Assembly (NCBI GenBank): GCA_000002445.1
Contig: CP000069.1
Span: 64,001 to 128,000 of the forward strand
DNA from: Trypanosoma brucei
Taxonomy: Eukaryota
Direction of reading: 5' to 3'
DNA: 64,000 nt
The translations under genes were made by a program, and so were the position numbers. Each line of letters begins with the position of its first letter. Position 1 is the first letter of the stretch. Shown here piece by piece: positions 1-49,448 of the stretch. The notes under the pieces were generated by a model. It was not told the origin of the DNA. It did not search any database and saw only the letters and a list, made by a program, of their open reading frames with translations.

Positions 1-422
1 TGCATTTATACGCAATAATGTGCACTTTGTGCCATTATACGCAATAATGTGCAAATTGTTTAATTATACGCAATTATGTGCATTTATACGCAATAATGTG
101 CCATTATACGCAATAATGTGCAATTTGTTTAATTATACGCAATTATGTGCATTTATATGCAATGTGTGCATTTATACGCAATAATGTGCATTTATACGCA
201 ATAATGTGCAATTTGTTTAATTATACGCAATTATGTGCATTTATACGCAATAATGTGCATTTATACGCAATAATGTGCACTTTGTGCCATTATACGCAAA
301 AATGCGCACTTTGTTTAATTATATGCAATAATGTGCAATTTGTGCAATTATACGCAATAACGTGCAATTTGTTTAATTATACGCAATAATGTGCAATTTG
401 TTTAATTATACGCAATAATGTT
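1..422. repeat. Imperfect tandem array of about 17 units, truncated at the window start. The core is about 19-20 nt (TTATACGCAATAATGTGCA). Some units carry a 9-10 nt insert (ATTTGTTTAA or CTTTGTGCCA), giving about 29 nt.
   Basis: Read directly from the sequence. The motif 'tacgca' recurs at spacings of 20 or 29 nt from position 9 to 408. The array stops at about 422. Confidence 0.9.
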
Positions 423-1001
423 CATTTTGTGTATGAAAATACAAAACAAGAAAAATAAGCGGGGCAACGTTGTAATGGAAGCTGTATCTTGCTGTCGAAG
501 ACTTAGAAATATATTTACCATAATGCGATGATGGCAACTCGTTTGGAGAGGGAAAAACAGTACGTAAGCTGGTTTCATTATAAAATTTATGAAGTTGATC
601 GGGGGATGAAGTATTAGAAGGTGCTTAGTTTTCTCCGCTCCCTTATCGATCGATATTTAGGAGTGAAGTCGCATTTTAATATGCTGCGGGTGGTCGAATA
701 ACCCCCCTCCGGTATAATAGCACTACTTGAAAGAAAATGATTTTTTTTTTTGGAATTTTCTTCGTGCCTTCGTGAGAGTTTCCCCCCACTGGCGCGGGCA
801 TCAGCCATCACCGTATAGCCCTGAGATGCTATCGGTCTGGCGACTGTGGCAGAGTCTCCCTTTTTTATTAGGCCTAACACACTCTCTATAATTTTTGTTG
901 TAGCTCCACAGTTAAACGGAATACAGCAGATGGGGCGAGAAGCCTCCCACCCTGGACTCTCCCAGAGATGTCAATTAGCAATCCTTTTGTTTTGATTTTT
1001 G

Positions 1002-2318
1002 TTATTCGTTTATTATTCTCTCTCCCTCTTTCTGTTTCTGTTGCTTGTTGACTGCATACCCCCTGTCTTTGAGGGTGTCTGGACTATTCCTGCGTCCGGT
1101 GCTTTTCCTGCTAGCTCCACACTCGGCAATAAGGGGGGAAGTTGTAGAAGGGAGAGTGGGTTGTATGACTGTTACATTAGGTGAGGACTTCACCTGCGGC
1201 CGGCTCCGTTCAACCGCAATGAGAAACTGCGCCAGACTTTTAGAGAAACATATATCCTGCACACACTCACCTTCCACCGCAAACCTGACACGTAACTCCT
1301 TCAAACCGGGACAGCTCATCAAGTGCAGCGACGTTTCTTCGCAGTCGCCGCGTTGGCTGGTAACAGCGCGCTCTACCTTCATACCGTGCATCTTCTTTTG
1401 ATGTAGGGTGAGGCCAGTTTTGCTAGCACACTGCCTTCCGCATGTCGGGCACACCAACATGGATGTGTTTGTATGCGGGGAATCAGTGGCACACAATTTT
1501 GTGCTTTTGCTGCATTCAAGCTCGACTCCCTCACCTTTTTGGAAAGCCTTACAATGTCGGATGAGGGAGTCCCTGCAACTGAGCACTTTTTGGCACACAC
1601 CACACTGCACCTCGCCTTTCCCCGGGACGTCAACGTTTCCCTCACGGGCACGCTTACGAGGGAATTGCACCACCACCACGGTACCGTCCTCCGTCACTAT
1701 GCTCTTATGTTTGAATTTCTTGTGTAGTGACAGGGAAGAGCGTGTACCGAAGCTCGCCTCACACAGGTCACATTGAAACGGCAGCTTCCGTGTATCCTGA
1801 GAGGCTGGCGCTGCTGGGGCTTTACCATCTCCTTGCACTGAGTCCTCGTTCTCTCGCCCCCTTTTCACGCGGCAACTACCGCTACCTATGCCATGTATTG
1901 TTCTAAGGTGGTGTAATAGTCGGCCTGGCACTGCGAATTTGGAGGCACAGAGGGTACAATGAAGCACCTGCGGTCTCATCGGGACTCGTGTGCTCGATGG
2001 TAGAGGAACGATCGCCACCACTGGAGGGGGCTCCGGGGGGATATCCACTGCAGGTGTTGCATCGCCGTATTTGATCCTCCGGAGGGCATCAGCTCGCACA
2101 AAGCCATGTTTGTTTACCATATGCGTTACAGCACTCGAGCGGCATTGGTATGTGGCATCACATTCCGTACATTTGGTCGGTTCGGAGGTTCTCTGAACAG
2201 TGCGTGTCGCAACAGTTGGGACTGTTTGTATTGTTGGTCCTATCGCTGCATGTTGCGGGTTACACCATCGGCACTGTGGAGGCACGCTACACGCGGGTTG
2301 ATCTTTCGCAACATCCAT
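1002..2318 (-). pseudogene. ingi C-terminal domain ORF with multiple C2H2-type zinc fingers. It is separated from the upstream RT/RNase H ORF by a frameshift in the 2240-2318 overlap. This copy is therefore probably non-autonomous or degenerate.
   Basis: C-x2-C...H-x3/4-H units are present, for example 'CTLCASKFAVPGRLLHHLRTIHG', 'FQCDLCEASFGTRSSLSLHKKFKH', 'CPTCGRQCASKTGLTLHQKKMHG' and 'CTECDATYQCRSSAVTHMVNKHG'. The ORF overlaps the upstream ORF in a different frame. Confidence 0.7.
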
Positions 2319-5300
2319 CCATAGTGTCTTGAAGACCCAACCCGAAAGCGTGCCAGTGCCGTTTCTTGTTCCCTCGTCAGTTCTTCTTTATGTTTTGTTG
2401 GAAAGTGGTTGCCCGTGATACCAAACCTATGAGTGTTCTCATGGACTTCTTCCGACCTAAGCACTCGCTTCGCATAAGCAATGATGTCGGGGATCCATGC
2501 GTCTCGCAACTGTGGTAAATCTGCGGCCTTTTTGGCCATTTCATCACAAACCTCATTCCGTTTCACGCCACAATGGCCAAACACAAATTGCAGTCGGATA
2601 CGCAACTTCCTTCTCTGAACGTGAAGCAGAAGCCTCCATAGTCGTCTCAGAATTGGGTCCGTTACGGCTAGGGGGCCTGTCTGCAGTGCTGTTAACATTG
2701 ACAGCGAGTCAGAGAAGATGGACAACCTGCTCGGTGTGCTTCTGTATGCCGGAAGCCATTTCAGCAGCCGTTGCAGTCCTATCTCTAATGCTACGCATTC
2801 CGCTCTGTAACCGCATGAGAGTCCCCCTTCTCCGGTCTTGGGTGCACAAATCAGCGTGTTGTTTCTATAGAGCAGGGCAGCTGCTCCGGACTTATCACCG
2901 AGGGACACGGATCCATCAGTCCACAATTCGTGGTGCTCTCGTCGCGGTGGCTCCTTCCCCCTCCGTGCAAAATGCCGTTCAATCCACTTTTCGGAAGCCT
3001 CCATTTTAACATCGTCGGGGTCATCAGCGCACACAGGCTTTATCTGCATGTGAAATATCGGTCGGCAGCTGTGGCGGAGCGTCGATGTCTCTAGTGGGTG
3101 CTCGTGTGGCTCAATGCGGAGGTGGGGATAGGACCGCATGATGCGGGAATGTAGGGCTCTGACTGGGTGTTTGCTGTGGTATACTTCTTCAGCACTGCGC
3201 CGCAAACATCCGCCTCGTGACTCACACATCAGCATGAATTTCATGCTGCGCACAAGAGTGGTCGTCTTGAGTGGCAGGAGGTTTGCTTCCAGCAGAGAGT
3301 CCTCTTTGCGCGTCCCATGCGGTATGCCAGCTATGATGCGACTGGCTTTGTGTTGTGCTGATGCAAGGAGGTCGCGACTTCGTTCCGAAGCGTCCCAGTA
3401 CCATACCTCAATGCCATACATGGTGTGTGCCTGTACGAGTGCTAGATAAAAAGCTCTCAGTACTTGTCGTCTTGGCCCCCATGTAGAAACTGAGATGGCT
3501 GCTATCTGCAGTAGTCGGAAGTCCATCTTGCGTCTCGTTTCGGTCGCATGTGTTGCCATCCCCTGCAGACACTGGAATGTTACTCCTAGAAGCTTTGGTG
3601 TCCTGTCAGCTCCTATTCTTTCGCTGTCCAGTTGCAATGTAAGGGGGTGGCGCTCTATACACCCGAAGAGTGTGCACTTTGTTTTCGCTACGTTGACAGA
3701 CATGAAGTACTCTTTTGACCACTGTAACACCACGTTTAGACCGCATTGTAGTGTGTGGTTGATGACATCCCTCTCTGTGTGCCTCGCAAGCATCGTCAGG
3801 TCGTCTGCAAAGAATCCGTGCTGCAGTAACGGCACTTCTGCAAGGCATTGGCTCAACGAGTTCATGACAATAATGAACATGATTGGGCCAAGGACAGTTC
3901 CTTGTGGCACTCCTCGCTCAAATGTTCTGCTTCTGGAGAGCTTCTCCTTGAATCTCACTCTGCCAGTTCGTTTACTCAGAAATGATACGCACCACTTCAC
4001 AATGTGGGGTGATACCTTCATTCTGTGCATTTCCCTCGCAATTTTGTCGTGGTCTACTGTATCAAATGCCTTCTCGTAGTCAACGAATACAGCGCCCGTA
4101 CGATATTGGTGCGTGGGACGGCAGAGGGCAGCGCGGACGTGCAGGAGTTGTTCGAGCGTTGAGCATCCGGGGCGAAAGCCTGATTGCTGCGGCGTCAGCT
4201 GGGACTCAACAGTGTCTCTAAGTCTCGCGGCAATTATGCGCTCCATGACTTTGCAGAGACAGCTTGTGAGCGTCACAGGCCTGTAAGAATCGAGGTCCTC
4301 CGCCTTTTTTCCGGCCTTCAGGATGGGGATGATAACACCAGTCTTCCATGCAGGCGGCACGACTCCCGTTCGTAGGCTCTCATTGAATAGCCTCAGAACA
4401 ACATTCAGCGCTGTTCTGCCGAGATGTTGCAGTGCCTCGTTGTATAAGCAATCAGGTCCGGCTGCGGATCCACTCGGTAGCAGCTTGATCGATCTCCGTA
4501 GTTCAGCCATCGTGATGGGACTGAACTCACTCGCTATCGTCTTTATGGGTGCCGGTGGGTGTGAGTCGGGGTGCCTTCTTGCGCGGGACGAGTACAGTTT
4601 AATGAACCTCTCAGCTTGACGGCAGTCCGTGATGGCCGCGTTATCAACAAGTACGGCCGGTGTGGTTAGTGGTCGTGGCGCATATACCTTCTTGACAATG
4701 TGCCAACTGCAGCGGTCTGACACCGCAAGTCTGGAGCATAGCGTGCTCCATTTCTTCTTTGTGGTACGGTCCAGGATCTGCTTACGCGTGGCTACCAACT
4801 TTTCCCTTCGGTGGGAGGGTCCGCATCCAGCGATCTCTTCATCGAGTTTCGCGAGCGCAGGTGTCCAATGTGGTGGCGTTGCTCTGCAGCCACGGGGGAC
4901 GGAGACCTTCGTCGCAATGCGGATGGCGGGGCTCAATTTCTGTTCCAGGGTGTTGACGTTCTTCTCTCTACCAATTTTCCTGCAGAACTCGTCAACCTTG
5001 AGACGGAAATTCCTCCAGTCAGCTTTTAGCCATGCGTACATGGGCTTTCGAAGCCGCAGGCAACTCAGTGCACCTGTGGCCTCTCCAACGATAACGTCGA
5101 AAAATATGTGATGGTGATCGCTATTGGGAGAATACAGCGATGTCCACGTGTACACTGTGCAATTCCTTGACAGTGTCACATCAGGGGTGGACTCCCCGAG
5201 GTGGCGCGCGTACCTGGTGCACTCACCAGTGTTACATACCAGAAACTGGTTGTCAATGCACCACTGTGTGAGGGTTTCACCCTTGGTATTTGGTGGGCTC

Positions 5301-5725
5301 GCGCGATCCCATGCCAACGCGTGTGCGTTAGCGTCTGCACCGATGAGCTGGGCACCGTCAGTCGTCAGAAGCGTATCTAGGTCACTTGTCGTGAAGGTGT
5401 GTTTTGGTGGGATGTATGCCGACGTGACAGTCAGCGCCGTTCCACGTGCAAGATGAATTGTTGCATGCGCTTGTTCAATTCCCCCAACAACGGCCATACC
5501 GGTATCGACTGGTAGGTCCTCCCTCACTAGTATTGATACACCACCTCCTTTGCAGTTACGAGCTATTCCGTGAGGTTGGTAGCCAGCAACGCTAAAGCAA
5601 GCCGCCTCTCCAGGCGTCATCCTTGTCTCGCTCAACAGACAAAAGGCGATCCGCTCATCAACAAGGGTTTTGTGGAGTGCTAATCTCTTTCCTTGAGATA
5701 GCCCGGCGCAGTTCCACTGCTCCAC
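2240..5725 (-). CDS. ingi polyprotein, N-terminal and central part: apurinic/apyrimidinic-type endonuclease, reverse transcriptase, RNase H. The listed 5725 start is a GTG. The reading frame is open further upstream, or the true N-terminus lies in another frame.
   Basis: In the translation, the N-terminal 200 aa have an exo-endo-phosphatase-like pattern. RT motifs are present: 'GVPQGTVLGPIMF' and 'FFADDLTMLA'. An RNase H motif is present: 'LWTDGSVSLGDKSGAAALL...ECVALEIGL'. Confidence 0.8.
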   Translation of the reverse strand: MEQWNCAGLSQGKRLALHKTLVDERIAFCLLSETRMTPGEAACFSVAGYQPHGIARNCKGGGVSILVREDLPVDTGMAVVGGIEQAHATIHLARGTALTVTSAYIPPKHTFTTSDLDTLLTTDGAQLIGADANAHALAWDRASPPNTKGETLTQWCIDNQFLVCNTGECTRYARHLGESTPDVTLSRNCTVYTWTSLYSPNSDHHHIFFDVIVGEATGALSCLRLRKPMYAWLKADWRNFRLKVDEFCRKIGREKNVNTLEQKLSPAIRIATKVSVPRGCRATPPHWTPALAKLDEEIAGCGPSHRREKLVATRKQILDRTTKKKWSTLCSRLAVSDRCSWHIVKKVYAPRPLTTPAVLVDNAAITDCRQAERFIKLYSSRARRHPDSHPPAPIKTIASEFSPITMAELRRSIKLLPSGSAAGPDCLYNEALQHLGRTALNVVLRLFNESLRTGVVPPAWKTGVIIPILKAGKKAEDLDSYRPVTLTSCLCKVMERIIAARLRDTVESQLTPQQSGFRPGCSTLEQLLHVRAALCRPTHQYRTGAVFVDYEKAFDTVDHDKIAREMHRMKVSPHIVKWCVSFLSKRTGRVRFKEKLSRSRTFERGVPQGTVLGPIMFIIVMNSLSQCLAEVPLLQHGFFADDLTMLARHTERDVINHTLQCGLNVVLQWSKEYFMSVNVAKTKCTLFGCIERHPLTLQLDSERIGADRTPKLLGVTFQCLQGMATHATETRRKMDFRLLQIAAISVSTWGPRRQVLRAFYLALVQAHTMYGIEVWYWDASERSRDLLASAQHKASRIIAGIPHGTRKEDSLLEANLLPLKTTTLVRSMKFMLMCESRGGCLRRSAEEVYHSKHPVRALHSRIMRSYPHLRIEPHEHPLETSTLRHSCRPIFHMQIKPVCADDPDDVKMEASEKWIERHFARRGKEPPRREHHELWTDGSVSLGDKSGAAALLYRNNTLICAPKTGEGGLSCGYRAECVALEIGLQRLLKWLPAYRSTPSRLSIFSDSLSMLTALQTGPLAVTDPILRRLWRLLLHVQRRKLRIRLQFVFGHCGVKRNEVCDEMAKKAADLPQLRDAWIPDIIAYAKRVLRSEEVHENTHRFGITGNHFPTKHKEELTREQETALARFRVGSSRHYGWMLRKINPRVACLHSADGVTRNMQR

Positions 5726-6551
5726 GTACGGTTTTGCACTTTTGCAACACTCATTTGTGGCAGCTTTTCCGCAAGCAGGGGGAACTCACCACACTGCCAT
5801 GGAAGCAAGATTCTCATTTCCTCACTGGTACACTCCCATCTTCCATTATTTTACCACTGCGACGTCCGGAGACGCGTTCAGGGCCCTTCGGAAAGCAGTT
5901 TCGCGTAGGAGCGACTTGCGCATCCAAGGAAAACACTAGCATGAGGATTGTGCCCCCCGCCCCCAGCCCCTTCGTATTCTTGCGCCCTTCAAGTCCCATC
6001 CGCCACTGAGCACCATGGTTGCTGTGCTTGGGGCTCCGTCCGACATTTCCCACAAGAAGCAGGAGACAGCTGCCTTTCACCCAAGTGCGCTGCCACGGCC
6101 TCCCGCGCCGTCTCGGTTACTTTCCTCATCCCAAGAGTCAGGCAATTCGCAGCACTTTCCGCCCATTCATCAACAGCCCTCCACCAACGTCCTTCAAGTT
6201 TCCCTAAAGAAGGCGCTGGCGCGTAACTTGCTGCACGCACGGATGGCGGCCGTGTGCCAACGCCGCGATGAGGCTTCCGGTGCAACCGAGAGGCGCGGCC
6301 GAAAGTGGGAGCGAGAGCTCTCCCAACTATTTGGGAGGTGGAGTCTCGCCAACGATACTTTGGGTTATCTTTCTCCTGTGGGAATTACTGTCGGAAATGA
6401 CGCCAGCTGCGTCGGCTCGATCGTTCCCCTCAGGACGTTTCATATTCAGAGGAAAACGAACCATGCATCGTTTACGTTGCGCATACGGACGATATGGCCC
6501 TCCGGGCTGTCTGAATCGACCAACGTCGCAAGTGATGCTCGCGAAGTGCGC

Positions 6552-8195: not shown

Positions 8196-11100
8196 TTATG
8201 CCTCATGTTCCGCAAAGTGGTTTGCAATAATAATCAGCGACGCGCTCCTCAGCGTGCTGACTGACCGTTCGGTGCCACTGGATGCGCAGAGATCTACCAC
8301 ACGTCCAACTTTAACCGCGATGCGGCATATGATTTCCTCACAGCATTTATCGTCCCACTTGTCTTTCGCTCCAGCAGGAAACGGCACATGCCAACGCTCA
8401 CACAAGGGAACGAGCAACTTCCGCCGTTGTGCTGCGGCGAATGTGCCCAGAAGAGCTTGTAGAGAACTGGCGATCATCAGCGAAGACCCATTCATTCCTC
8501 CGCGAACGGAGCTTACATCGCTGGCTGTTGCGGAGGAACAATCTGACTTGTCGAAGTACTCGCGGTCTAATTGCAGTGCGGTGAAGACACGACCAGGCAC
8601 GGCATTCAACTGGTACATTTCCACAGGTTTCGGCACACCACGAAGTGTAACAGCACCAAGTGCAGTGACATCAATTTGCTCACGCTCCTCAGCTGACAGT
8701 GACAGGTATGTTGAGCGCGTCATCAGCACCTGACCACCATTTGCCACACTCTCTGTCCTTGCTGCCATGTTTGGAGTCCGCCCATAGTAGTCATATCCCT
8801 TCGTCACTTCATCGTGTCGGATATCGCACAACCCGGTGTGGATTCCAACACGTACACGCAGGCCATTCCACAAACGACTGTACACTTCAGGATCCAACCG
8901 TGCAGTTGGCGGTGTGTACTCACATTCTCCCTCCGTGCATTGCTCCTCAAACTCACGGTAGGAATCATCAATCGCATTTGTTCCCCAGTCATGATGCAAG
9001 AAACACAGCTGTAATTCCTGTGCGAGTTGGACGGCAGCGAAAGGACTCTTACTCGCTATCATGAACGAATCCCCAACAGTTTTGACTTCGTAGCAGTCAT
9101 ACCTCGCAATCAGTGAACGAATCATACGATGATGCGCGGCGACGGCATCAGGCATCAGCTCAGGGTGTGCAGCCCACAACGCAGTGCTGCTCTCAATGTC
9201 AGTAAATATTAGTGTCACGGGGTCAGTTGGCTCTCTAGGTGCACGGTTGTTGTTACGACTTAGGCGCAACAAATACAACATCGTTGCTACCAATGCCGCA
9301 ACGACCGCCAGAGCGATGAGAGCGCCAGCGATAAGGCCTGCAAGTTCGGCGTTCGTGAGTTGGCCTTCTTGAGGATTAAGGTATTTTATCGACGGTGTCA
9401 CTGGCGAGGTAAGTGGCAACACTGAGGCGTCTAACGCCCGAGCCGCGGACCACAGGGAAATGCGCGTCGCGCCGTAGTTAACTATACAGCTTTCCGCGTC
9501 ACTGGCATCCCCACCGAGGGGCTCGGCGCAGGTATCACTGGCAAAGGGGCCATACCGCATATCGTCAACGGCAATGACCGATTGTGCAAAGATGGTCTCG
9601 GTCAGAGTCTTCGGGGTCACCTTTTCCGTGAATTGAAGGACAGTCCTCGTGAACCTTGCGGTAGCGAACCCAAGCAACCTCAGTGGCGTCCAAACGGAAG
9701 GAGCACGTAGCGCAGCGTGGAACCTTCGTACGGTCTCTGATGTTGTGTTGACGTCTGCCCAGTGGGGCAGACTCGTGGGGAAGAGAAGGCGGTAAGCGCT
9801 CGGGCTGCCATTAAATGTGCGCGCGATACCACTGTACATCAAGGCCATGTCAAAGAACGGCACGAATACATACACATCAGGGTTAGCATCAAGGTGATCT
9901 TTAAGCTCTCCGACATCAGCGACGTTGATTCCGATGACAATGGCATATCCGTCTTTCGGAAGCTTCTCTTTCAATGCCGCAACCTTGTCTAACGTAGCAA
10001 ATGAGTCCAGCGAGGTGCCGGTGGCCAAAAACGTTCTTCGAATTGCGTCCTCGACTCCCTGCGCGTTCCTGCCACGAAATAAAACGGACGCTCTTCCAGA
10101 CGCTTTGCGCACCAGATACCCCGAAATCACAAATAACTGCTGTTCCAGCGTTGGTGACAGGTAGATCACATTGCTTCCGTTATGGCGAAGTTCCGGATTT
10201 AGCGTTATAGGGTCAATAAATACGACATCCGCCGTCGCAAGCATTTCTTCACTCACTGCGCCAAATAGAGCCGTAACAACCTTAGTGTCCAACTCGTGCA
10301 TCAGTGCTGAAGATGCAGCGCTTGACGCCGAAGCTCTACCCTGTAAAAACAAGCGGTCGGATTGACCAAACGTTCCATCGCCAGTAAGGACACTAACGCC
10401 ACCGTATATCTCCCCATTGGCTCTTAGTGCAGCCGGGTTATCCCACAAAAGAAATATCAAACCATTCACGGGAGACTCCACTCTCATGCCATCGTAGTAA
10501 CAACTAGACGGATTGAATACAGTTAACCCGTTGCGAATGTCGACCAATGCGTAATCGCTTGATAGAGAGTTCAGGTAAACCACGTTCCCCCCCTGGTTGC
10601 AGTTGCAGGCCGCTCCGTAATCAGCTGCCGCTGACCCGCATTCCCCACCGAAGTCACCAATCACAAGGTCGTTAATGACGTACCGGCGTTGCCTGTAAAG
10701 CGATTCCATGTATTCCTTCCTGCTACTAAGAAACTCGCGATTCGCTAGGGATTGGGACAACACCTCACCAACGATCCACCCGTACATCACTGGCTCTCCG
10801 TCTACACCGTAGAGATCTGTGATATTCAAAGAACTGTACTGGCCCGAGTTGGTGTGGTCGTTTAAGTACGACTCCACATCACTTCGGCAACGACGAACAG
10901 CGGCGTATTCAGTGCTGGTCGGCCTGGGGACGACTCCTGTTAATATCACTTGGTCGGTCTTCAACGTGACGTTGAGAGCATCAGCTGCCCACCGCCACGC
11001 ACTTTCGATTTCAGCCTCATGCGGTAAAGTGGAAAGGAAATGCGCATCCCGTGTGCGGTTATCAACAATCATATTCTTTATGAACTTTGCTGTATCTTCT

Positions 11101-11792
11101 GACAGTGGTGAAAAAATGATCACACCCTGCGGATGCGTTTCTGCAAACCGGTTCCATGCAGTGTCAAATTCGGAAGAATCCGCTTCCCCCGTTACAGAGC
11201 TCTTTACAGTGAACACGCCACACAATTCACGACCCATATGCGACATCAGCTCCACAGCTAGCAAGTACTCGTTGTCCCCAAATGAGACATTCTGCAGGTA
11301 CATGAAACCAATCCGTCGCAAACGCAGTTGTGTTACTGCAAAACGAAGCAGTGTCAGTAACTCAGCAACGGGCGAAACAAATAGAAAGTAGAGATTTGGG
11401 TTCCACCCACGCACAGAGTTTGAACCAGTGTAGGGACCAAGAGTGACCAAGTTTTCCTGTTTAAGCAAAGGCATGAAAGATAATGCGTCAGCGTCATTAA
11501 GGGGCCCAACCGACACAAATAACTCATCCCTGTTTTGTTCTATGGCCGTCTGCAAGCCATCAACGGGTTCGGCGTCGTACGATGACGGATGAACAACTTC
11601 CACACTCACATTCGACTCACGAAGCCACTGCTTTGATGCCATTGATGCATTGAAACCAATGCCGATCGCATCATTGTAATGTGCAGGAACAGCGGCCCCG
11701 TACAACAAATAATATACTTTAACGTGTATATCATCTGCTGCACCAGACAACGATGCCGCTGATACGATCATTAGGAGCACCAAAGACATCAT
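8196..11792 (-). CDS. GRESAG4: Receptor-type adenylate cyclase of the GRESAG4/ESAG4 family, copy 1, apparently intact. It has a signal peptide, a large extracellular domain, a single TM and a class III cyclase catalytic domain.
   Basis: The ORF is open from 11909 down to 8196, but the codon at 11909 is TTG. In-frame ATGs lie at 11831, 11807, 11792 and 11789. The ATG at 11792 begins a signal-peptide-like stretch, 'MMSLVLLMIVSAASLSGA'. The TM region is 'AGLIAGALIALAVVAALVATMLYLL'. The catalytic motifs are 'VTLIFTDIESSTALWAAHPE', 'YEVKTVGDSFMIASKSP' and 'GRTPNMAARTESVANGGQVL'. Confidence 0.9.
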   Translation of the reverse strand: MMSLVLLMIVSAASLSGAADDIHVKVYYLLYGAAVPAHYNDAIGIGFNASMASKQWLRESNVSVEVVHPSSYDAEPVDGLQTAIEQNRDELFVSVGPLNDADALSFMPLLKQENLVTLGPYTGSNSVRGWNPNLYFLFVSPVAELLTLLRFAVTQLRLRRIGFMYLQNVSFGDNEYLLAVELMSHMGRELCGVFTVKSSVTGEADSSEFDTAWNRFAETHPQGVIIFSPLSEDTAKFIKNMIVDNRTRDAHFLSTLPHEAEIESAWRWAADALNVTLKTDQVILTGVVPRPTSTEYAAVRRCRSDVESYLNDHTNSGQYSSLNITDLYGVDGEPVMYGWIVGEVLSQSLANREFLSSRKEYMESLYRQRRYVINDLVIGDFGGECGSAAADYGAACNCNQGGNVVYLNSLSSDYALVDIRNGLTVFNPSSCYYDGMRVESPVNGLIFLLWDNPAALRANGEIYGGVSVLTGDGTFGQSDRLFLQGRASASSAASSALMHELDTKVVTALFGAVSEEMLATADVVFIDPITLNPELRHNGSNVIYLSPTLEQQLFVISGYLVRKASGRASVLFRGRNAQGVEDAIRRTFLATGTSLDSFATLDKVAALKEKLPKDGYAIVIGINVADVGELKDHLDANPDVYVFVPFFDMALMYSGIARTFNGSPSAYRLLFPTSLPHWADVNTTSETVRRFHAALRAPSVWTPLRLLGFATARFTRTVLQFTEKVTPKTLTETIFAQSVIAVDDMRYGPFASDTCAEPLGGDASDAESCIVNYGATRISLWSAARALDASVLPLTSPVTPSIKYLNPQEGQLTNAELAGLIAGALIALAVVAALVATMLYLLRLSRNNNRAPREPTDPVTLIFTDIESSTALWAAHPELMPDAVAAHHRMIRSLIARYDCYEVKTVGDSFMIASKSPFAAVQLAQELQLCFLHHDWGTNAIDDSYREFEEQCTEGECEYTPPTARLDPEVYSRLWNGLRVRVGIHTGLCDIRHDEVTKGYDYYGRTPNMAARTESVANGGQVLMTRSTYLSLSAEEREQIDVTALGAVTLRGVPKPVEMYQLNAVPGRVFTALQLDREYFDKSDCSSATASDVSSVRGGMNGSSLMIASSLQALLGTFAAAQRRKLLVPLCERWHVPFPAGAKDKWDDKCCEEIICRIAVKVGRVVDLCASSGTERSVSTLRSASLIIIANHFAEHEA

Positions 11793-14700
11793 CTTTGTGC
11801 CGGGCATGTGGCGCCACTGCAGGACACACATGACACGCTTACCCGTGTCCAAAATACGCGGCCAGAAGCTCGAAGAAACAAATATACAGTGGCCAGTATC
11901 CTTACTCAATTGTCTTTAACTAGGTGATGGTTCATAATGTCAAAGAATCATGTTAGGCGGAGAAGGATACCGGCGTCGACATAGAGAATTACGATACGGG
12001 GGCGATAGTGATGAACGCAGTAATATTAGGTGGAACTTCCCGTGTTACTGGGAAGTGAGGCGACGTCCCGACAACTGTTTCACACGAATCCCAACAAAGA
12101 GGAAGGGTAATATTTTCAACGACTAAATTATTCTGTCTTTCTCCAGGTTGTCGCACCGCTATTCGACGGAGCATTCTACCTTTAGATTGCTGGGATGCAG
12201 TATGGGTCCTTGAGGCGCGAATAGGCTTCTCGGACATGTAATCACCAGAGACATGTTTCTTCATTTTGTAATTCATCAAGTGTGTGTGCCCTTTGGGAAG
12301 TGTGACATACGCCTACCCAAGATGAACAAATACCCGTGCATGTATGACAATACTAACTAGCATGAATTCGCAATGTTCAAACTCGTTGCCTGCGTTACGC
12401 GCCCCAGTTTTTTCATGGGCAAATGCGCCCTCACATGACATGAACAATGAAAATTGCACTGTGCAAAATACACACCACCACAAAGCGACACGCATCGATC
12501 TAGCACGGAAACGCACCATATTTTAAATCTCTACACACCGACGGACACAAACCATCACCACTCGGCTTCCTCTGCCGTCTTTTACACACAGCTCAACATC
12601 GAGAGTCACCAAATTATCCGGGAGGGAGGGAGGGGGAAACACTAACGATCCACCCAGAACCAACAACACCTACTGTTGGGGAAACTAATGGTGACACATT
12701 TGTGCACACTCTTACGCTATAGTACACGATATGAACGAAGAAATAATAAAAATAAAGGAAAACAAATGAGTGTGCGCTCCATTTAGATGACGAACAAACA
12801 CTATTTCAGATGGACACACGTATCTGCGTTTGAATATTTGAATAGGTTGGTAGCTTCTGTGTTTGACACTAACACATTACTCGCAATGCTATCTTAACAT
12901 CGAATAGTATATGAGTGGAAACAAACTAAATCAGCAATTACGAAATTGCTGTTATCATTACCGTGACACAAATAGCGCTATTGTTTAGAAGGTAACAACA
13001 ATGGCAAAGAAGGGATGGAACACAACTACAGATAACAATATCGGCTCAATGACCGCTAAGAAATAAACATAATCAGTGGTTATTCACATGTTTAACGTCA
13101 GTTCCCTTGAGCAGAGGGACAAGAACACTTGGACACATCGCACACTTGCAGTAGAGTACAGGCATGCACACAATGTGAAGCATTAGCGTTGGCATCTTGT
13201 ATACCACAATGTATTGTAGGCTATTGAAGTTTCTTTATCTTTAAAGTTTCATGAGCTGTCCATAGTGCTGGCACCTGCTATTCTGTTCGACACAGGTAGC
13301 AGTGTCTCCCATTTTCTCCAACCTTAAATGAGTTAGATACCGCATAATCATACAGATCATGTGCATTCGCTTCCGGTGTTGGAGGTGAAAGATCACATCT
13401 GCTGCACACAATTGCGTGGATTGACCACAAGAAGAAAAAGATATAGCTTGAAGCCACGTGTGCTGCAGCGAAATGTGTTTGTGTAGGGATACTCCCTTAT
13501 CGTATGGATTGCCTTCCTATTTCCAAACATAATATTCAATGCTGGTGAATCATATCGTTCCAGTGAAACGCCATTTTAGCTGTGTAATTTACCTTTTAAT
13601 TTACCTTCTCCCTCCCTGTGAGTTTATTTCTAACGAGAGAACGAAATTAAACCAAATTCAGCAATGATACACAATAGTCACTGCATGGAGTGAGATTGTC
13701 AGGTAATGTTCTTGAGAGCAATTGCTTCTTATAACGGAGTTACATCAGAGAAGACTCACACATTCATTACAGTGCAGAGAAAATGAACTGTCAATGAAGT
13801 CATCACACTTCATAAATACACTAACATCACAGAAATCAATACAGGGCTCACGAAGAGTACTTCAATGGACTCTTTTCATGTGTAAATTATGGTCAAGAGG
13901 GTGAACGCACGGATAAACAAATATGTGTCATACAGACGGTGCCAGATGTGAGGGAACTAACCCTGAGAAATACTGATTGCGCCAACTCACAGTAATTAGT
14001 GATATATCCGACGGACTCATGGTCAGATGGGGAAAACAATAGCAGCTGATAAATATGGAAGGGATAAGCACATACAAAGCCTTAAATATATTCGCAAAGT
14101 TTGAATAAACAAGCAAACATATCAACGCCAATGTGTTTCTTTGTTTTATTGTGCAAAATGTATCAACCGTGATGGTGGACTAGTGACAAACGTATGACTG
14201 TAAATACTGCACCGAACCAGTAGGTGCCAGCAATTCAGTGTATCCATATATTACCACTCACTACCACCTTAGAACCTAATAACTAAGAAAAGAAGATAGC
14301 AATATTCAACATTGTAGAGGATAGACAATGAACATAGAAACAGAAAAGTTTTTTTACACAAACCATTCCCATCAAAAACATACAGCTGCGTTAACAGAAG
14401 CAAGTACTGCTGCAAACAGGTCAGGACTGTTTCCTTCTTATATTTTTCATGTCGATTACTTTCTTATCACACTATGTCGTTCACTCACTCCAATATAAGA
14501 AAACTGCGACTGCTGTTAAAGTGTCTATCATTTCACATACACAGACTCAATGGTTCGCTTACCACTTGCGCTGTGTTCCCCATAGTGGCAACCTGTCATT
14601 CACAGTAAAGAAAGTTGATCTCGCATTTCTTGTTTCGTATCGACATTGACATCTCGGGTATCCGTGCTATCTTCAATTAATGTTATCGCACACATACAAA

Positions 14701-17700
14701 GACGTTATGTCACAAAGTTCCTTCAACACTAGCATGCATAAGTTCAAGGACGACAATGAGAGCCCCCTGTTACACAGACTAGTAAGCTGGCGGTACCTAA
14801 TGCTGTACATGCACTTAAGGCGAATAGCAATGACTTCGATGTGACTACCATCCCTGTGGTATTCTACAATGTCTCAGAGGGGAAATTGTGCCCATATTTC
14901 ATTTACATCATACTCACACTGAAATTTAACAAGCAATTACGGCACTAGAATATCTTCATCCATTTGTCATCTTTCAACAAAACATAACAATAATACTAAT
15001 TCATGTTCCGAAGAATAAGCATGCACTAACCAAAGTCAATGCAATACATATTGTTCCTGAAACGCACCGAGAAAAAATTCCACCCCCTCAGTTCACAAAG
15101 TTTCAGTAGACGGAGCACGAATTGTCACACACCAGAAGGTCATGGTCAAATGTTTTGAACCACAGGCTGATCCCTGGCAGAGCCTGACAATGAGGGCGAA
15201 CTTCCCTTTGAAGTTTACATTTCATTTTTTGAAAGACAAAATCGACTACGAGCGTGGGTAATCCTTTCATTGGATGTTACGAGCGTTTAAAGAAAAGGTC
15301 ATCTATACTCAATATCAGGATTTATATTCAACCTTTGGGGTTGTAACATGTGCACTCAGTTCGTTTCCCCGTAGCGTGGCCCCGATCAGACGATTTACCA
15401 TCAAACTCAGGTGCCCCTTCATCAGAGGGCGGCATGGTGTCCCCTACGCGGGTTCATTCAGTTTCCCTTGTATAAAATGAGGAGAATACTCAAGGAGTTT
15501 AACGCATCGACCCACCACATGTAAACCACTGCTGCGTATTCTTGATAGGCGCATGTGCATGTAACATTGCTGTTTCACAATTCACGCAGCCACAGAGTTA
15601 AGTGACACCATCTCGTATGAACGGCAATGCGACCCTGCGGCACGTGTAGCACAGCCTCACCAAAGTTTCCCTCGCTTAACACCCTTTTACCAGCATTTGG
15701 CTCTTGTGCCTCGGCGCCACGGTCAACATCCTGCCACAATTATTCGAACCTCTCTCAGCTCTATCTCCGGTGCCTCGACTTAGTCCGATTGCAACTTTAG
15801 ACATTGCAGCTTCAGTTAAAAGTTGTCCTTTGCTCTCTCTGTTTGGAGTCGTCCGTTCGGTCGGGAAAAGGTTTCACAGTTCCGCGATCAGATCTAAGTC
15901 TTCCAGTTTCAAGAACCTACGTGAAAAATGCGCCCACAGCCCGTGAAGCGATGATCTGCCTCTCACGGTATTTTCCGCCCCACATTCTTTGCGCAGTGCC
16001 TTTTGGGTCTGTCATTGTAGTAAATGCGGGGAAGTTTCTTTGGACCTTATGCCTGGGTTGCGGAATTGCTTTTTCATTTTCTCTTCGTGATCGCGCCGCT
16101 TCTGTATGGTAAGGGAAGGTCGCTCCATGCATTTTGTCGGGAGGCGCGCGAGTTGGTGCGCCCTCAGAATCGGCCTTACCAACTGGAATGTTCCGTCGGC
16201 CTCGGCTTTCTCAAGTGTTTTTCTTTCCGGCTTGTCCGCCTCCGGCGTGCGGGTGTGAGCACCGACGAGTGTGCAAAATTTCCCCTTCGTTGAGTGTCCA
16301 TGTGAAGGCGGAACGCCACGGCATCGATGGTACGGCCGCTCACTGGCAGCGTCGGCTGGGGCGAGTGCGCAGAGGTAATATCAAAGAGCGCTCCTTCCAT
16401 TGAATGTACCGGTGGTACTGTGTGCGGTTACTGTGGTTGATTTGCGCTGTTTTAGGGGAGGTTAGGCATGGACGCTGGATTTTGTTTGGTGCCCGCCTCG
16501 AATAGCTCTGAGTGGCAACTTTCCTCTGCTCTGGACATGATAAAGGAATATTCGTGACCATACCGTTATTTTCGTAGCAATGTGGAGCTCGCCATCGGCA
16601 CACACACCCGCGTGAGGGATGTATGCGTTCAACGCGGAGTGCTGTCTTAGCTAGCGAGCCATTTTTATCCGGCTCATAAGATGCCAGTCTATTATTTTCC
16701 CAGTATGTCAAAAAGATGGCTTCCCATCGTAACTATAAAACATTGCTCATCACCTTTGGTGCGGTAGCGGATCGGCTATTCGTGTCGTGTGCTGCAGGGT
16801 ATTTGCGGAACGTAAACAATACTCGTTTGTCTCGATCAAGACAAAAGAGAGAAAATATGACAATGACGGTAACAACTATCTGCTTGCGCCATCGATACGC
16901 TCTAACTCACTTTGGGGGTGCTGCCGAAGGGTGCAAAAACCAACGGACAATGTAATAAGGTTGTAAATAATGATTAGAAAGTGAATGACCCAGTTTGTCT
17001 AAAAACTTCTGATCGGCCAGCCTTGGTTCAAATTATTTTTTGAGCATTTGGTTAGGGACGGACGATGTACGTAAAGACGTTTAGTGCTGGTATAAAGGTA
17101 CCGTCTGTGTGTGCAATTGGAGCCATATTTTCGCTACGAGGCACTAAGCGCTACAAAACATCATGGTAAAATTTACATCCAGTCCCTGCCATGATTGTGA
17201 ATGAAGCAAGAATGATATTAATTTAGAACTTGGCAGTGATTTACTGGCGGCAGATCTAGCGCTAGTAATTGTGTTACTCATGGAGGCAGCGTGTTGTACA
17301 CCCATTTTGAGGAAAGTAACTACTCAAGATAATCTCATCAAATATAGGTATCCGTACGGGAATGTTGGTGGGGCTACGAATTGCGATGCCTTGCGATGCC
17401 CATAAAAAATTTCCCGTGACACTACCTGTAACATGAGGTGATACTCCACTGCTCTCTCCTCGTAAGGGAATTGAGTACAAGTGACGGAGAGTTAGTGAGT
17501 AATCACCTTTCGTGGATTGGATAGGTAACAGATGGGCAATACCCAATGTCACTCACGGGATGTTACTGAGATGTCATTTGTGTCGCTCGATGGCACCTGC
17601 CGTTTTGTTGTTGGAGGCTCGTTTTTCTTTGCTACCTCGTTGGCAATATTCCCAATTTAATTACCTCCTTCATATGCCTATAATTATTTTTTTACTCCGA

Positions 17701-20700
17701 GAGACATCCCAATAAATTACTGCCTCTCTTTTTCTTCGCGACAAGCAGCTACCGGCATGTATAAAAGTGAAGAAAGGAAGAAGCACAAAACAGATACGCA
17801 TCTCACTTACTGACTTAGGAAGTCATATCGCTTTTTTTTCTTTGACTGAAGGTAAGTACCATACACTCAACAGCGCACATAATTTTACCGTATGATGCAC
17901 CACTGGGAGAGAGACCAAAAATGGAAAAAGAAAGGAAAAAGCGGATAGGAACTAATGCAGGACATGCCGGCTAACTAACAGTGAGAGGACTATTGTTGGA
18001 GACGCTATGTGGTTAACAGGACTGTGTGGTAATGTTTAATTCCGATACTTCGAGTTCCTGTGGTTTCTACACTTAGTGAAACAATGCCTTCTGCACTGCC
18101 AAATTCCTCTATGGTTTTAACGCAAGTGTGCTTCTTTGTTGTTATTGTTGCTCTTAAAATATGAGGATAAAGAGAAGAAATCAATTGAAAAGTGAATATG
18201 CTGAGTGTGTGCGTTTGAGACAAGGTACGACTGTGCTGTAGGTTCTGTGGCACTAGCCTTCCCTCGCTGAGCACAAATATTTGCAACCGATGGTTTCAGA
18301 TGTGACTCGGGGGCTGGTGACCGTAGCTGCAGTTTGTCTCAATGTGTAGGCACTATTTTAAATGACTTATACCGAACAAGGGATATCTTAAGAAGGAACT
18401 AATAGTGTCATAGGGACACATTATTTTGTTGTTGCGCTTATACATTGAATGTTTTGTTGCCGACAATAAAGGCTAACATTGTGGAAGCAGTTACTGTAAA
18501 GAGATATTGTCCCCAAACGTGTATGAGGCCACTATTGATACGAAATTTGTTTTTCCACTAAAAGGTAAGGGAGCACCTTATTCCGATACCCTCAGCTCAC
18601 CACCACAAGGTAGATAAACTTTTTAAAAGGTACAGTAAAACACAATGGTCAAATAGGATTTGTGTGTGTTTCGGCCTTTGGCTTCTGTATAGTGTGCTTA
18701 TGCATGAGCGCCTACATCTCTCTCCGTGTGTGTGATAACTGCTCTTGCGTGCAGTACCATCGTTTGGCTGCTTGTCCCGTAACTCCATTCCGTAATGATC
18801 CCTCTGGAGTATTGATAGTATTTCAAACATGGCGTTACATCATGCATACGTTTACATCACACGACCTTCCTATGCTCATTCACTCTCTCTGACGATGGAA
18901 ATAAAGGGGGTATCAGGTATCACTTTTTAGTTATAATTGTTTAAGGCGCCTGTGTGTCGTGGTGCGCTTTGAATTTTGTGATATTTGCGGTCGCCTATCG
19001 ATTGAACTGTGGTATTGGGCTGACAGGTCTGAAGGCACTTTCTTGTCCCTCATATTGTTTCCGTTTACTCTTATACCCGGTTGGGAAATTAACCTCCTTT
19101 TTATACTGAACCACAGTAGGATATGTGCTTGGTCGATATGATGGTGTTCCCGTTCCCCCCCTGATATTTCATTTGGATTGTTCTAAAGTTTTATTGTTTT
19201 TTTTTTGATGCCATACACTGCGTGGATACTGCTTTTAACTGTCAAATAGAGCATTTTTCGTTACTTTAGATTTCGGTTCTTTTTCCTTTTCGGAGGGAAG
19301 CCCGGGTTAGTCTCAGATTAATGGCTGTTGCTTGTACACCGTCACCGCATTGTACACGCTAATGTTGAGTCTTACATCATACCGTTTTTTTGTCCTCTCT
19401 ATTTTCTGGTGTTGTATCTGATGATTTGTATCACTATGTTTTCTCGGATAGAGCAGTTCCACGCTTCGATTTTTGATGGCCCATGCTGCATCGATACATG
19501 AGTCTATTTACCTGACATTTTTGTTTCTTCCCGTTGCCACAGCTAGAACAGTGCTCCTTATTCCTTACTGATGAAAGGAAGAGACTTACCGGTTTTGTAT
19601 TTACCCCAGGAGGGAATGACACGTTTCTACTTCCAGTGTTCTTCATGCCATTCAACGCTACCAATATTACCAAATTTTTTTTTTCGTGGAAATATCTTTA
19701 TGGTATCATTTTTTTTCTTTCTGGGGTTATATGGACTTGTGATCTTGCTTACAAACCCCCCTTTTAACCATTACTGGATAGCGAGGTTAGTGTTTCGCCA
19801 CAAGCGCCTTAGGGGTTTCAGAGATCTACTGCTGATATTCCAAAGCGCTGAGAGTGACAGCAGCAAAGAAATGAGCTGAAAAAGAATGAGATGAGTGATG
19901 TGACGGAGTTGCCATATTGAGTGATACCTCGCGAGTGTAGCGTTGCAGCTCCTTCACAATTGTTGGGTTTCTTCTGTTTGAAGCCACAGCAAGGCTCATA
20001 TACTCTGCGGGATGCTTCTAGGTTGGAGACTTTGCTTCCCACAGGTTTCCTGTAAAATGTTTTGTGTCAGCCTTGGTAGTCTGACACATGTTTACGAATT
20101 CAACAGCGTGTATGTCGCTGCACACGACGACCGATTTTATATTTGGCGATGTGGGAGGGTTGATGTTGCACTAGGGATACGATATTGGCCAATTCACTAG
20201 CCATGCCAAGAGTCACAGTGTACAGCATTGTTATCACACTTTTGCCGCACAAGAACGGGACTCGTCACAGCACTCCAGTGGCGATTTAAACCATGCTATG
20301 TGTAATGGATAGCGGACACGTGATGATGAGCTTCCCTTCCCGCGACAGAAAAAACGAAAAAAAGACGGTTCTTGGTGACAACGTTGTATTCATCTGCCGT
20401 TGAGAATTATGTGCGAAACATGCAGAGAACCACAACCTATGCGTATGTGCGTTGTTGCTGTTTTTTTTTTTGCTTGTGTGTCACAGGCATGTGCGAACAG
20501 ACGACACAGGTGATCAGCATCCAGTGAGGTACGTTATGCATGTGAAGGCAGCGCTTTCCCCTTGCCGGTAATCTGCACCGATGAACATACGCAGCGACCA
20601 CCGCATGCGCCTCGTTCTGCTGCGCTTTCGCAACGATGGATCAGTTGTTGCAGGTGAAGAGAGACGTAAGGAGATTGCGTGTAGCGAAAATAAGTGTTAC

Positions 20701-21625
20701 GGTTGCGCTCTCTGGGTGCCAACACCGTGGTAGTCAGCGAGGATATAATGGACGGATCCCGTCGTCTCAGACTGTAAGTTAGCCTGCTCTGCAGAAGTGG
20801 GTTTGGGAGACGGCGGCGGTTACTTATACGGTTTTGCCGCATTGGTCAGGATGTTTCGTGAAGTTAGTTGACCGACGTATGAGTTGTGGGGATGCCGTAT
20901 GCCAGTACAGATATTCTGCTGCTTTACACTGCTAACGTAAAATGGCGTCCAAAGAATGGAACCAGGCTCCATCTCACACAAACAGCTGCGGCACTGTTAG
21001 ACCCACGGAATCGGGTACGATCCAACACATTTCGTACCTGCAGATCGCTGTAGGATGCCTCCGCCACAGACAGTTATGACTCATCTATCCTGCAAACGCC
21101 TGATCATTCCATGGCTCTGCTGCCACGATATGGCGAGTTGCGCCTTATGTTTTTAGCAATGTGACAGAGATGTCCATTAGGTAAGCAAGAAATTCTTTAC
21201 TCCCATGAAATATGTGCTTGCAACGGAGAGTCTCAAACCCCATCACCATGGTAGGTACAAAGGGGATAATAGGTATCTGAATGCATGAATGTAGTGAATA
21301 CACCACCAGGGCACTTACGACTAGCGTTCTGCCCTCAACTCAAACGAAAGCCACATCGAAGACAGATCCATATTTCGTAATGAAATGTCAGTAGCAAGGA
21401 AAACAACGACACACATGAAATACGTATACGTGTTTGTTTGTGTGACACCATTTCCCACCAGCGTGTCGGTTGTCCCTTTCTATCATTTGCTCGCAATTTA
21501 CAGTGACATCATAAACGAGTCGCCTCTCGCTACCTTGACGTGCCTTCATTGCTTTTTAAGCATTGTTTTGGTTTTTTAGGGAACTTGTTATAGTATCCAA
21601 CTGTCTGGAAGTGTAATCTTACTGA

Positions 21626-21660
21626 TTTCTATTTTCCCTCTTTTGATATTCTTCCTTAGG
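21626..21660 (+). promoter_or_regulatory. Candidate polypyrimidine tract plus AG trans-splice acceptor upstream of GRESAG4 copy 2.
   Basis: The run 'ttctattttccctcttttgatattcttccttag' is pyrimidine-rich and ends in AG at about 21658-21659, upstream of the first ATGs. This rests on what is known of kinetoplastid trans-splicing; the site is not verified. Confidence 0.4.
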
Positions 21661-21830
21661 ACATAAGATTTCACACACGAAAAGTGTCACACATTACCGA
21701 AAATATGTGCTGGCAGGAAGGTGGTGGAAGAGGATGTGTGTACCCTCATGGAAACTGCAGGCGGAACCTTACCGCAAGGAGCCCTGCAAGGCGTTACAGC
21801 AAGTACAAGCACTCACCTGTCATTACTGCT

Positions 21831-24800
21831 ATGTCACTGCTACACTTGTTGCCTTTGCTACTCATGTGGATGCCACCTGTGTGCGCGGATGACAGTGCTG
21901 TGACGGTAAAAGTGCTATCCATGATGTATAATCCGGATTATACAGATAATGAAATTAACGCCCTGAATGCCGGTTTTGACGCATCACTGAGTGCCCACAG
22001 CTGGAAGACGGGCTCTAATGCGACAATATCTGTCATCCGTCCCCCATCACCCAATGCGACAATCGAGGACATATTTCAGCAGGGAATGAATCAAAGTGAA
22101 GACAAGTTATTAGTTGTATTCGGTTCCCTGGGTACTGATCACGTCTCGTGGGTCCGTGATAAACTAAACGAAAATGATCTTGTTGGCCTCGCTCCCGTTG
22201 CGTACTCCAGTGAGGTCCGTGGTTGGAACCCTCACCTTTATTTCATAAGTGTCGAACCCAATGCTGAACTCCTCGCCCTCATTCGTTATGCTGTTGTTTA
22301 CCTCCGTGTCCCACGAATAGGTATGATGCACGTGAAGAGCAGCACCGCCAGTATGGGACCGTATGAGTTTGCTGTGCAGATATTGGAAATGATGGGTCGC
22401 GAGCTGTGCGGAATGTTCGTTGTGAAGGAGAGTGAGAATCAAAATATCTCTGAGGATGATTTGAACGTCAGGTGGAGACAATTTGTTGCTACGCGCCCAC
22501 AGGCTATATTGTTGTTTTCATCCCTGGTGGATGGCAGCATCACGTGGTTCATCAAGAAGGTAGCACAGGACAACCGCACTGCCAATGCGTATCTTCTTTC
22601 TACTTCACTACAGCAGGGTCCTCTTATCAACATGTGGCGTGAGGCATTGGCGTTAGCTAATCGTACATTTACTCCTGGACAGCTAATCACAACTGGAACA
22701 GTGCCGCTCGCTAACGATACTCGGTTCTCACTGATTCGGCACTTCCAGCGTGATGTGAACAACTACCTGAAGACAAAAAGTGACTGGAAGGGCTTTGCGA
22801 AACCCGATCACTACCTTGAGGACGACAACGCAGGTGAGATGATGGTGTATGGGTGGCTTGCGGGAGAAGTTCTCTTCCAGGCTCTGAACAACGCTCCACA
22901 ACTGACGAACCGTACGTCATTCAGGGAATCTCTGTACAAGCAGCGTCGCTACGTGATTGATGACCTTGTGGTTGGTGACTTTGGTGGTGAGTGCGATGAG
23001 GCCGTTGCATTACAGGGTGCCATGTGTGAATGCAATCAAGGTGGCAACTTGGTATATATGAAGAGTATAGTGAATGGCTTCCGACCAGCGCCTTTGAGGG
23101 AAGGGTTCCTGACGTGGGGTGTATCAGAGTGCTCGAGTGCCAATGTGCAAGTAAGCGCGCCATTGAGTGGCCTGTTTTTGCTTCTCGCAGACAATGAAGT
23201 TGCATTACGTGCGAGCAGGAAGTGGTTCCTTGGTGCCGAAGCTCATAGTAAGAAGGTGGATGATATTGACAATAGAATATTTTTCCATCCCCTAACAGTA
23301 TCTTCAGAGAATGTGACGCAATCCCTTGAGCAAGTACGGGATAACAGGGATGTATCTGCAGTATTTGGTATCATGCCTGGAGGGCTTCTGGATCGAAAAG
23401 ATTTAATGTTCATCAGTCCTATGGCACTTGGTCCCCGAATGAACTGGTTTAGGAGAAACGTGATACACATACTACCACTTCTTGCGCAGCAACTTTATGT
23501 GCTTGCTGTGTATCTCTCCAACACTTCTTCCAGGGGAGTAAATGCATTCATACGTAGTGCCCACGCCATGAAGGTGGAGGATGCACTACACAAGTCATTG
23601 GACACGTTTGGTGTGCCGCTTGATTCCAGCAAGACACTTGGTGATGGTGACCCGATAGCGTCATATCTCTCGGGTGATGGAGATGTGTTTACTATTGGAC
23701 TCACTCTCACTGACGTTGCTGTGGTTGCGCGGCACCTTCAGACCCACCGCAGGGCACGTGTATTCATTCCATTCAATGACCTTGCAATGTACTACGATGA
23801 GTTTGTGGTTGCGTTTAATGCGAGTAAAGAGTCTATTGCTAGCTCAGAGCGGCTCCTATTCGCGACGAGTTTTCCACACTGGGCGGAGAAGGACACGAAA
23901 TCAGATGTGGTTGCGAGTTTCCATCGCATTGTGAATGAATCGCATTGGGATCCACTAACGTTCTTAGGTTTTGTTACCACTCGGCTGCTTCAAGTGATTC
24001 TCCCGAATATGAAGAAAGTGAATGCAGAGCTGCTGGCAGACCGCATTTACACGGAGTCCAACATCAAAGTGGATGACATGCGATTTGGACCCTTCAGTGA
24101 TGTGGAATGTGTTTCTGGTACGAGTGTTTCGGCAAATGAGTGTGCCTCAAACTTTGGAGCCACAAACATTTCTGTATGGTCGATGGCGCGTGTGCTGAAT
24201 TCAAGTGTGCCCATATTGCAACGCGGCATGACACCGTCTATGGATTATGCTATTTTGCAGGAGGGTCAACTCACACGGTCACAGATAGCCGGAATAATAG
24301 CCGGGTGCGTAGTCGGATTGATATTGTTTATTGTCCTTGGTGTGCTCCTACGCATCACCCTGCGGAATGCTCGTGATAACAATCTTGCGCCCAAGGAACA
24401 AACTGACCCCGTGACACTAATATTTACTGACATTGAGAGCAGCACTGCGTTGTGGGCTGCACACCCTGAGCTGATGCCTGATGCCGTTGCGACACATCAC
24501 TATTTGATTCGTTCACTGATTGGGAGGTATAAGTGCTACGAAGTCAAAACTGTTGGGGATTCGTTCATGATAGCGAGTAAGAGTCCTTTCGCTGCCGTCC
24601 AACTCGCACAGGAACTACAGCTGCGTTTCTTGCATCATGACTGGGGAACAAATGCACTTGATGAGTCCTACTGGGAGTTCGAGCAGCAGCGTGCGGAGGA
24701 GGACGAGAAGTACACACCGCCAACTGCACGGTTGGATCCTGAAGTGTACAGTCGTTTGTGGAATGGCCTGCGTGTACGTGTTGGAATCCACACCGGGTTG

Positions 24801-47866: not shown

Positions 47867-47909
47867 AAAGTATACGGTGAAACCTCAACAAGTTGCGCAA
47901 GTAAGGTCG

Positions 47910-49301: not shown

Positions 49302-49354
49302 TTACAGCTGAAATAACAGTGTGACATCCACAAAATATGCCATTGATGTCGTTA

Positions 49355-49448
49355 TCACTTTATTGTTATCATTTTATTGTTATCATTTTATTGTTACCAT
49401 TTTATTTATTATTTATTATTATTATTTTTTTTTTTTTGGGGGGGGGGG
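49355..49448. repeat. A 15-nt tandem repeat (CATTTTATTGTTAT, about 3.5 copies), followed by an ATT-rich run, then T13 (49425-49437) directly abutting G11 (49438-49448).
   Basis: Read directly from the sequence. Confidence 0.85.

Follow-up and report, generated by a model that had tools for sequence, protein, structure and literature searches.

An AT-rich tandem array of 29- and 20-nucleotide units beside an ingi retroposon on Trypanosoma brucei chromosome 5

Every megabase chromosome of Trypanosoma brucei has an AT-rich array at its topoisomerase-II (Topo-II) cleavage site (Obado et al. 2007, Genome Biol 8:R37, PMC1868937). On chromosomes 1, 2, 6 and 7 these centromere-associated arrays are built of units of 29 or ~30 bp and are 66-75% AT; on chromosomes 4, 5 and 8-11 the centromeric unit is 147 bp long and is composed of ~48- and ~30-bp sub-repeats (PMC1868937). 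At least one INGI or DIRE is always present at such arrays, which occupy 2-8 kb in the assembly, and the 147/148-bp (CIR147) array of chromosome 5 lies between Tb927.5.600 and Tb927.5.610 (PMC1868937). The 50-bp repeats are a further class. They form arrays of 10-50 kb upstream of all bloodstream VSG expression-site promoters, are highly conserved, mark expression sites and act as a domain boundary, and RHS genes lie upstream of the arrays (Nanopore preprint).

Here we describe a tandem array at the left edge of a 64-kb stretch of T. brucei DNA (hereafter the window). It looks like an ordinary non-coding repeat, similar in kind to the AT-rich simple repeats of ~30 bp that have been described from this organism. 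Our tentative interpretation, which we hold with less than even confidence, is that it is a chromosome-internal AT-rich minisatellite related to the AT-rich ~30-bp, 147-bp and 177-bp repeat families of T. brucei.

Structure and extent of the array

The features of the window on which the argument draws are as follows.

1..430, no strand assigned: right-hand end of the AT-rich tandem array (16 core matches, 0.02 expected)
431..737, no strand assigned: unique 307-nt spacer from the array to the ingi poly(A), matched by no other part of the window and by none of the fetched loci
738..748, minus strand: poly(A) tail of the minus-strand ingi, read as T11 on the plus strand (homology to the other copies stops at 741-745)
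738..5726, minus strand: ingi non-LTR retroposon, 5'-truncated (Pfam matches; alignment to five ingi copies)
1002-2318, minus strand: ingi ORF with C2H2 zinc fingers (Pfam)
2240-5725, minus strand: ingi ORF with endonuclease, reverse transcriptase and RNase H (Pfam)
8196..11831 (ORF to 11909; exact match 8199-11831), minus strand: receptor-type adenylate cyclase GRESAG4, AAZ11591.1/XP_845150.1 (Pfam; 1211/1211 identical)
21705-25466 (ORF 21684-25469), plus strand: receptor-type adenylate cyclase AAZ11592.1 (exact sequence match)
47910-49298 (ORF 47877-49301), plus strand: TbAT1, nucleoside transporter "adenosine transporter 1", XP_845152.1/AAZ11593.1 (exact match)
57351-58583, minus strand: truncated adenylate-cyclase ORF of 410 aa (catalytic domain, N-terminal part missing)
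62013-63959, minus strand: truncated adenylate-cyclase ORF of 648 aa (catalytic domain, N-terminal part missing)

Parsed at the motif TTATA[CT]GCAA, window positions 1-430 resolve into 17 head-to-tail units, nine of 29 nt and eight of 19-20 nt, and Tandem Repeats Finder agrees with this parse. Between position 6 and about 430 the unit lengths run 29, 29, 20, 20, 29, 20, 19, 20, 29, 20, 20, 29, 29, 29, 29, 29 and end in a degenerate last unit. The consensus of the 29-nt unit is TTATACGCAATAATGTGCAATTTGTTTAA and that of the 20-nt unit is TTATACGCAATAATGTGCAT; the 10-nt tails of the 29-nt units fall into two groups, ...TTGTTTAA (n=6) and ...TTGTGC[CA]A (n=3). A 19-nt core, TTATACGCAATAATGTGCA, is matched 16 times with at most three mismatches, always on the plus strand and within 6-424, against a chance expectation of 0.02 from dinucleotide-preserving shuffles. 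At the same threshold the core has no match on either strand outside 6-424 in the entire 64-kb window.

The two unit types appear to be multiples of a smaller element. Three sub-repeats of ~10 nt, TTATACGCAA, TAATGTGCAA and TTTGTTTAA, make up the 29-nt unit, and the 20-nt unit consists of the first two only. Sub-repeats one and two have 7/10 positions in common, and a 10-nt period is returned independently by Tandem Repeats Finder, whose periods for the array are 29, 58, 69, 20, 10 and 214 and never 49-50. Mean pairwise identity is 89% between long units and 92% between short ones. The initial annotation had described some 17 units at this edge, alternating between a bare 20-nt core and 29-nt forms that carry one of two 9-10-nt inserts. 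The array itself is borne out by the sequence, by Tandem Repeats Finder and by the motif parse, and the two inserts match the two tail groups (six and three units). Both unit forms also exist, but their order is mixed and strict alternation does not hold; likewise, the contrast of core and insert captures the two lengths, but these are better seen as two versus three copies of the ~10-nt element.

An independent contig of the locus (NW_017386306.1, 20,024 bp) is 99.69% identical to the window from position 19,290 to its left edge and extends the array beyond it. As had been noted, the array crosses the left window edge: the contig carries ~720 further bases of it and itself ends within the repeat, and the total array length is therefore at least 1.14 kb. 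In this contig the array comprises 41 units (26 of 29 nt, 12 of 20 nt, one of 19 nt and two irregular), some stretches of which show 29- and 20-nt units in alternation, and has a GC content of 30.3% (69.7% AT). Autocorrelation is highest at lag 29 (0.685), followed by 58, 214, 49 (0.534) and 10; lags of 147 and 177 give no peak. Within the array the window assembly differs from the contig by one 4-nt and one 21-nt indel, the flanking 19 kb being 99.69% identical; the indels reflect either errors in the drafts or length differences between alleles.

The origin of this contig deserves mention in its own right. It belongs to the RefSeq Schistosoma mansoni assembly GCF_000237925.1, which contains contaminant contigs of 20.0, 17.4 and 5.3 kb from T. 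brucei TREU927 chromosome 5. The 20.0-kb member is the contig used here and spans window positions from about -720 to 19290. Genes on these contaminant contigs are annotated as S. mansoni (XP_018644076.1, XP_018644077.1, XP_018644556.1/Smp_112610, Smp_112590 and XP_018644084.1).

We are highly confident that this is a real, non-coding array of the slippage type. Its longest stop-free stretch is 61 codons in the second contig, and the copy in the window contains a single ORF of 80 codons. When the stop-free translations of the array were joined and used as a protein query, no protein was found; the small ORFs around it have no counterpart in the protein collection, and there is no Rfam match to an RNA gene in the window. 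Single-strand folding of the array is worse than that of shuffled controls (z = +4.6), which rules out a hairpin or cruciform array.

Neighbouring genes and chromosomal setting

The ingi that lies to the right of the array is 95.7-96.7% identical to five other ingi copies over ~4,985 bp. Homology to these copies stops at 741-745 on the 3' side and at 5723-5726 on the 5' side; the T-run therefore marks the 3' end of the element, and the element is 5'-truncated. Relative to full-length copies, the element breaks off ~265 nt inside the ORF. A target-site duplication was looked for at the ingi ends and none was recognisable. The distance from the array to the poly(A) tail, given earlier as ~320 nt, measures ~310 nt.

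The neighbouring proteins match TbAT1 and GRESAG4 of Trypanosoma brucei brucei TREU927 exactly (chromosome 5). We take TbAT1 to be Tb927.5.286b, which places the locus on chromosome 5. A non-brucei trypanosome had at first seemed conceivable, since the top homologue of the cyclase carried the label Schistosoma mansoni and the best non-identical TREU927 cyclase reached only 56%; the former is a gene of the contaminant contig, and the exact matches decide the species. On the right flank of the array, the ingi and the cyclase AAZ11591 (8196-11831) are both on the minus strand and point towards the array. The cyclase AAZ11592 and TbAT1 are on the plus strand, and the succession of minus-strand AAZ11591 and plus-strand AAZ11592 therefore defines a divergent strand switch at ~12-21.7 kb. 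The array thus stands at the far end of a leftward transcription unit that runs through the cyclase and then the ingi. The 410-aa and 648-aa cyclase ORFs at the other end of the window probably represent pseudogenes or frameshifted members of the GRESAG4 cluster.

The BAC that contains AAZ11591 also carries two further GRESAG4 genes, AAZ11589 and AAZ11590 (AAX69868-70 for the three), which are absent from the window. They are 96% identical to each other, and both are only 50% identical to the expression-site ESAG4. Since they precede AAZ11591 in accession order, we infer a position to the left of the array for both, and the array would then be chromosome-internal in the assembly. AAZ11591 itself has no relative of at least 90% identity outside TREU927 and the contaminant contig, its next best trypanosome match being 56%. 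The block formed by the array, the ingi and this cyclase may therefore be peculiar to this strain or to a single haplotype.

Several other features of this region were apparent. A 7-kb inverted duplication (24363-31345 and 51472-58457, 98.9% identity) brackets TbAT1 (47910-49298), each arm beginning in the 3' end of a GRESAG4 cyclase, and recombination between the arms could invert the TbAT1 segment. From 50 nt downstream of the TbAT1 stop, positions 49351-49437 hold a TTA-rich microsatellite and a 14-nt repeat (GTTATCATTTTATT, ~6 copies). In T. b. equiperdum IVM-t1, a locus at CM010677.1, 79047-102865, carries a 98.6% copy of the divergent strand-switch region (window 12682-21940), joined to a mosaic cyclase and a copy of window 64000-54736 and followed by an ingi that is missing from the corresponding position in the window. 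We had considered this locus as an orthologous cyclase/ingi arrangement and rejected it on the grounds that it matches window 12.7-21.9 kb joined to 64.0-54.7 kb. To judge from these sequences, strains differ in the GRESAG4 cluster by duplication or rearrangement.

Relationship to the known repeats of T. brucei

The present array resembles the ~30-bp centromere-associated arrays of chromosomes 1, 2, 6 and 7 in that it is degenerate, of kilobase scale and 69.7% AT, has a 29-nt unit and has an ingi beside it, with the 3' end of that element 310 nt away. Those arrays, however, stand at the single Topo-II site of their chromosome, between directional gene clusters, often by rRNA genes, whereas the window contains no rRNA gene and the array is on chromosome 5, off the mapped site between Tb927.5.600 and Tb927.5.610. 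Counted in gene numbers, TbAT1 (as Tb927.5.286b) is presumably some thirty places left of Tb927.5.600. With CIR147 the array shares the chromosome, and its 29 + 20 composite amounts to 49 nt, but it has no 147-nt periodicity and the AT content of CIR147 is lower (59-62%). The missing 147-nt period led us to reject identity with CIR147, and the array is not the mapped centromere of chromosome 5.

A comparison with the 177-bp minichromosomal satellite was made with a 33-nt query merged from two overlapping primers printed in PMC1868937, which represents about a fifth of the unit. These 33 nt gave a weak match to the array with 20/26 positions aligned. The score of 24 compares with 15.2 +/- 2.7 for shuffles, 9-11 in 1000 of which reach 24 (p ~0.01), and exceeds that of every one of 110 other window segments. 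In contrast to the satellite, the array has no 177-nt period and occupies another genomic location. The alignment weakly suggests a common ancestry of the two sequences.

It is unit size, composition, context and this one weak alignment, with the centromeric units compared by description, that make the array resemble the AT-rich ~30-, 147- and 177-bp families and that incline us towards a minisatellite related to them. The principal alternative, already named in the initial annotation, is a locus-specific minisatellite that arose here by slippage and has neither sequence relatives in the genome nor a function. We judge this somewhat unlikely, and the searches for copies elsewhere bear on it most directly. 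The core is found nowhere else in the window, and was absent, at up to three mismatches and by sensitive BLASTN, from seven loci (~165 kb) of T. b. gambiense DAL972 and T. b. equiperdum IVM-t1, which include no centromere and no expression-site upstream region, so that the family hypotheses are outside their reach. The repeat pattern had no match in metagenome and prokaryote-genome collections, as expected, and a full-text search of the literature for the unit in both orientations gave no relevant hit. Local origin would also fit the possible strain specificity of the block, given that the neighbouring AAZ11591 has no close relative outside TREU927. However, the loci searched are not where relatives would be expected, and a 29-nt unit, a 49-nt composite, 70% AT and an ingi neighbour coincide with a described T. 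brucei class. The alignment to the 177-bp satellite, weak but above chance, likewise argues against an isolated origin.

A second alternative is that the array belongs to the 50-bp repeats, as a block of them or as their degenerate edge. It is, like them, simple, imperfect and presumably non-transcribed; a long and a short unit together make 49 nt, the lag-49 autocorrelation reaches 0.53, and parts of the second contig alternate 29 and 20. Retroelements, ingi included, are typical neighbours of 50-bp arrays on the chromosome-internal side, and one draft assembly failed to cross the present array. Yet the dominant period is 29 and not ~50 (0.685 at lag 29, 0.534 at lag 49), and Tandem Repeats Finder gives no period of 49-50. 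Canonical arrays are, moreover, highly conserved and mark expression sites, whereas we found no expression-site promoter, ESAG7/ESAG6 or other ESAG to the right of the array, a flank that holds ingi, GRESAG4 and TbAT1 instead. GRESAG4 genes are present on either side (on the left by accession order), and those on the left have only 50% identity to expression-site ESAG4. We therefore regard membership of the 50-bp class as improbable.

A more far-reaching suggestion, which we consider doubtful indeed, is that the array is a second, unannotated centromere-type block on chromosome 5. It could then be a relic, a pericentromeric outlier or a "proto-CIR147". As a "proto-CIR147" it would have kept the loose 29- and 20-nt pieces from which a 147-bp unit (3 x 49) was assembled.

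The initial annotation had raised the possibility that the repeat attracted the retroposon. On this account it would be a preferred ingi/RIME landing site, with array and retroposon mechanistically linked, as the 310 nt between the array and the ingi poly(A) and the regular company of INGI/DIRE and AT-rich arrays in T. brucei (PMC1868937) might suggest. We found no support for it. None of six other ingi copies, distributed over five of the seven loci with two copies in one of them, has the repeat within 10 kb; the present ingi inserted in unique sequence 310 nt off and outside the array; it is 5'-truncated, and no target-site duplication was identified. A landing site is accordingly very unlikely.

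The 29-bp subtelomeric repeat of T. brucei is reportedly telomere-derived and adjacent to the telomere tract, as Weiden et al. are said to have described in 1991. The earlier proposal of a link to such subtelomeric or telomere-proximal 29-nt repeats has the 29-nt period as its sole support and can be dismissed, since TTAGGG/CCCTAA occurs zero times in the array and in the whole window, which rules out a telomeric origin, and since the array is AT-rich without a G-rich strand, is flanked by gene-rich sequence and is internal in the assembly.

A model for the origin of the array and its implications

We envision a scenario in which the array, an AT-rich minisatellite related to the ~30-, 147- and 177-bp families, would lie between GRESAG4 cyclase genes on the left arm of TREU927 chromosome 5, by the 3' end of a 5'-truncated ingi. 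The ~10-nt sub-repeat would be its building block, present three times in the 29-nt unit and twice in the 20-nt unit. The mixed 29/20 pattern and the higher-order periods would then most likely be the product of replication slippage and unequal exchange in a ~10-nt register. We give slightly less than even odds to an evolutionary kinship with the centromeric ~30-bp arrays and with the sub-repeats of the 147-bp unit, with the present array at a separate site.

Other repeats of T. brucei carry base J and are enriched in histone H1 and NLP. By analogy with other simple repeats of this organism, the array would be transcriptionally silent and base J-modified in bloodstream forms, and we speculate that it is passive spacer DNA, placed where the leftward transcription unit of cyclase and ingi ends. 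Any boundary or segregation function seems to us unlikely.

As it stands, the array is of little import, being one short-unit AT-rich repeat in a genome already known to be rich in them. Its length probably varies, and with the drug-transporter gene TbAT1 close by it may serve as a genotyping marker. Were it a centromere-type block, it would provide a model for the derivation of the 30-, 50-, 147- and 177-bp satellites of T. brucei from one ancestor of ~10/30 nt. The array would gain some value if sequence comparison linked it to the centromeric or the expression-site families. If it could be tied to the centromeric family, such repeats would not be strictly one per chromosome, and it would represent an intermediate in satellite evolution that bears on the origin of the 147-bp unit.
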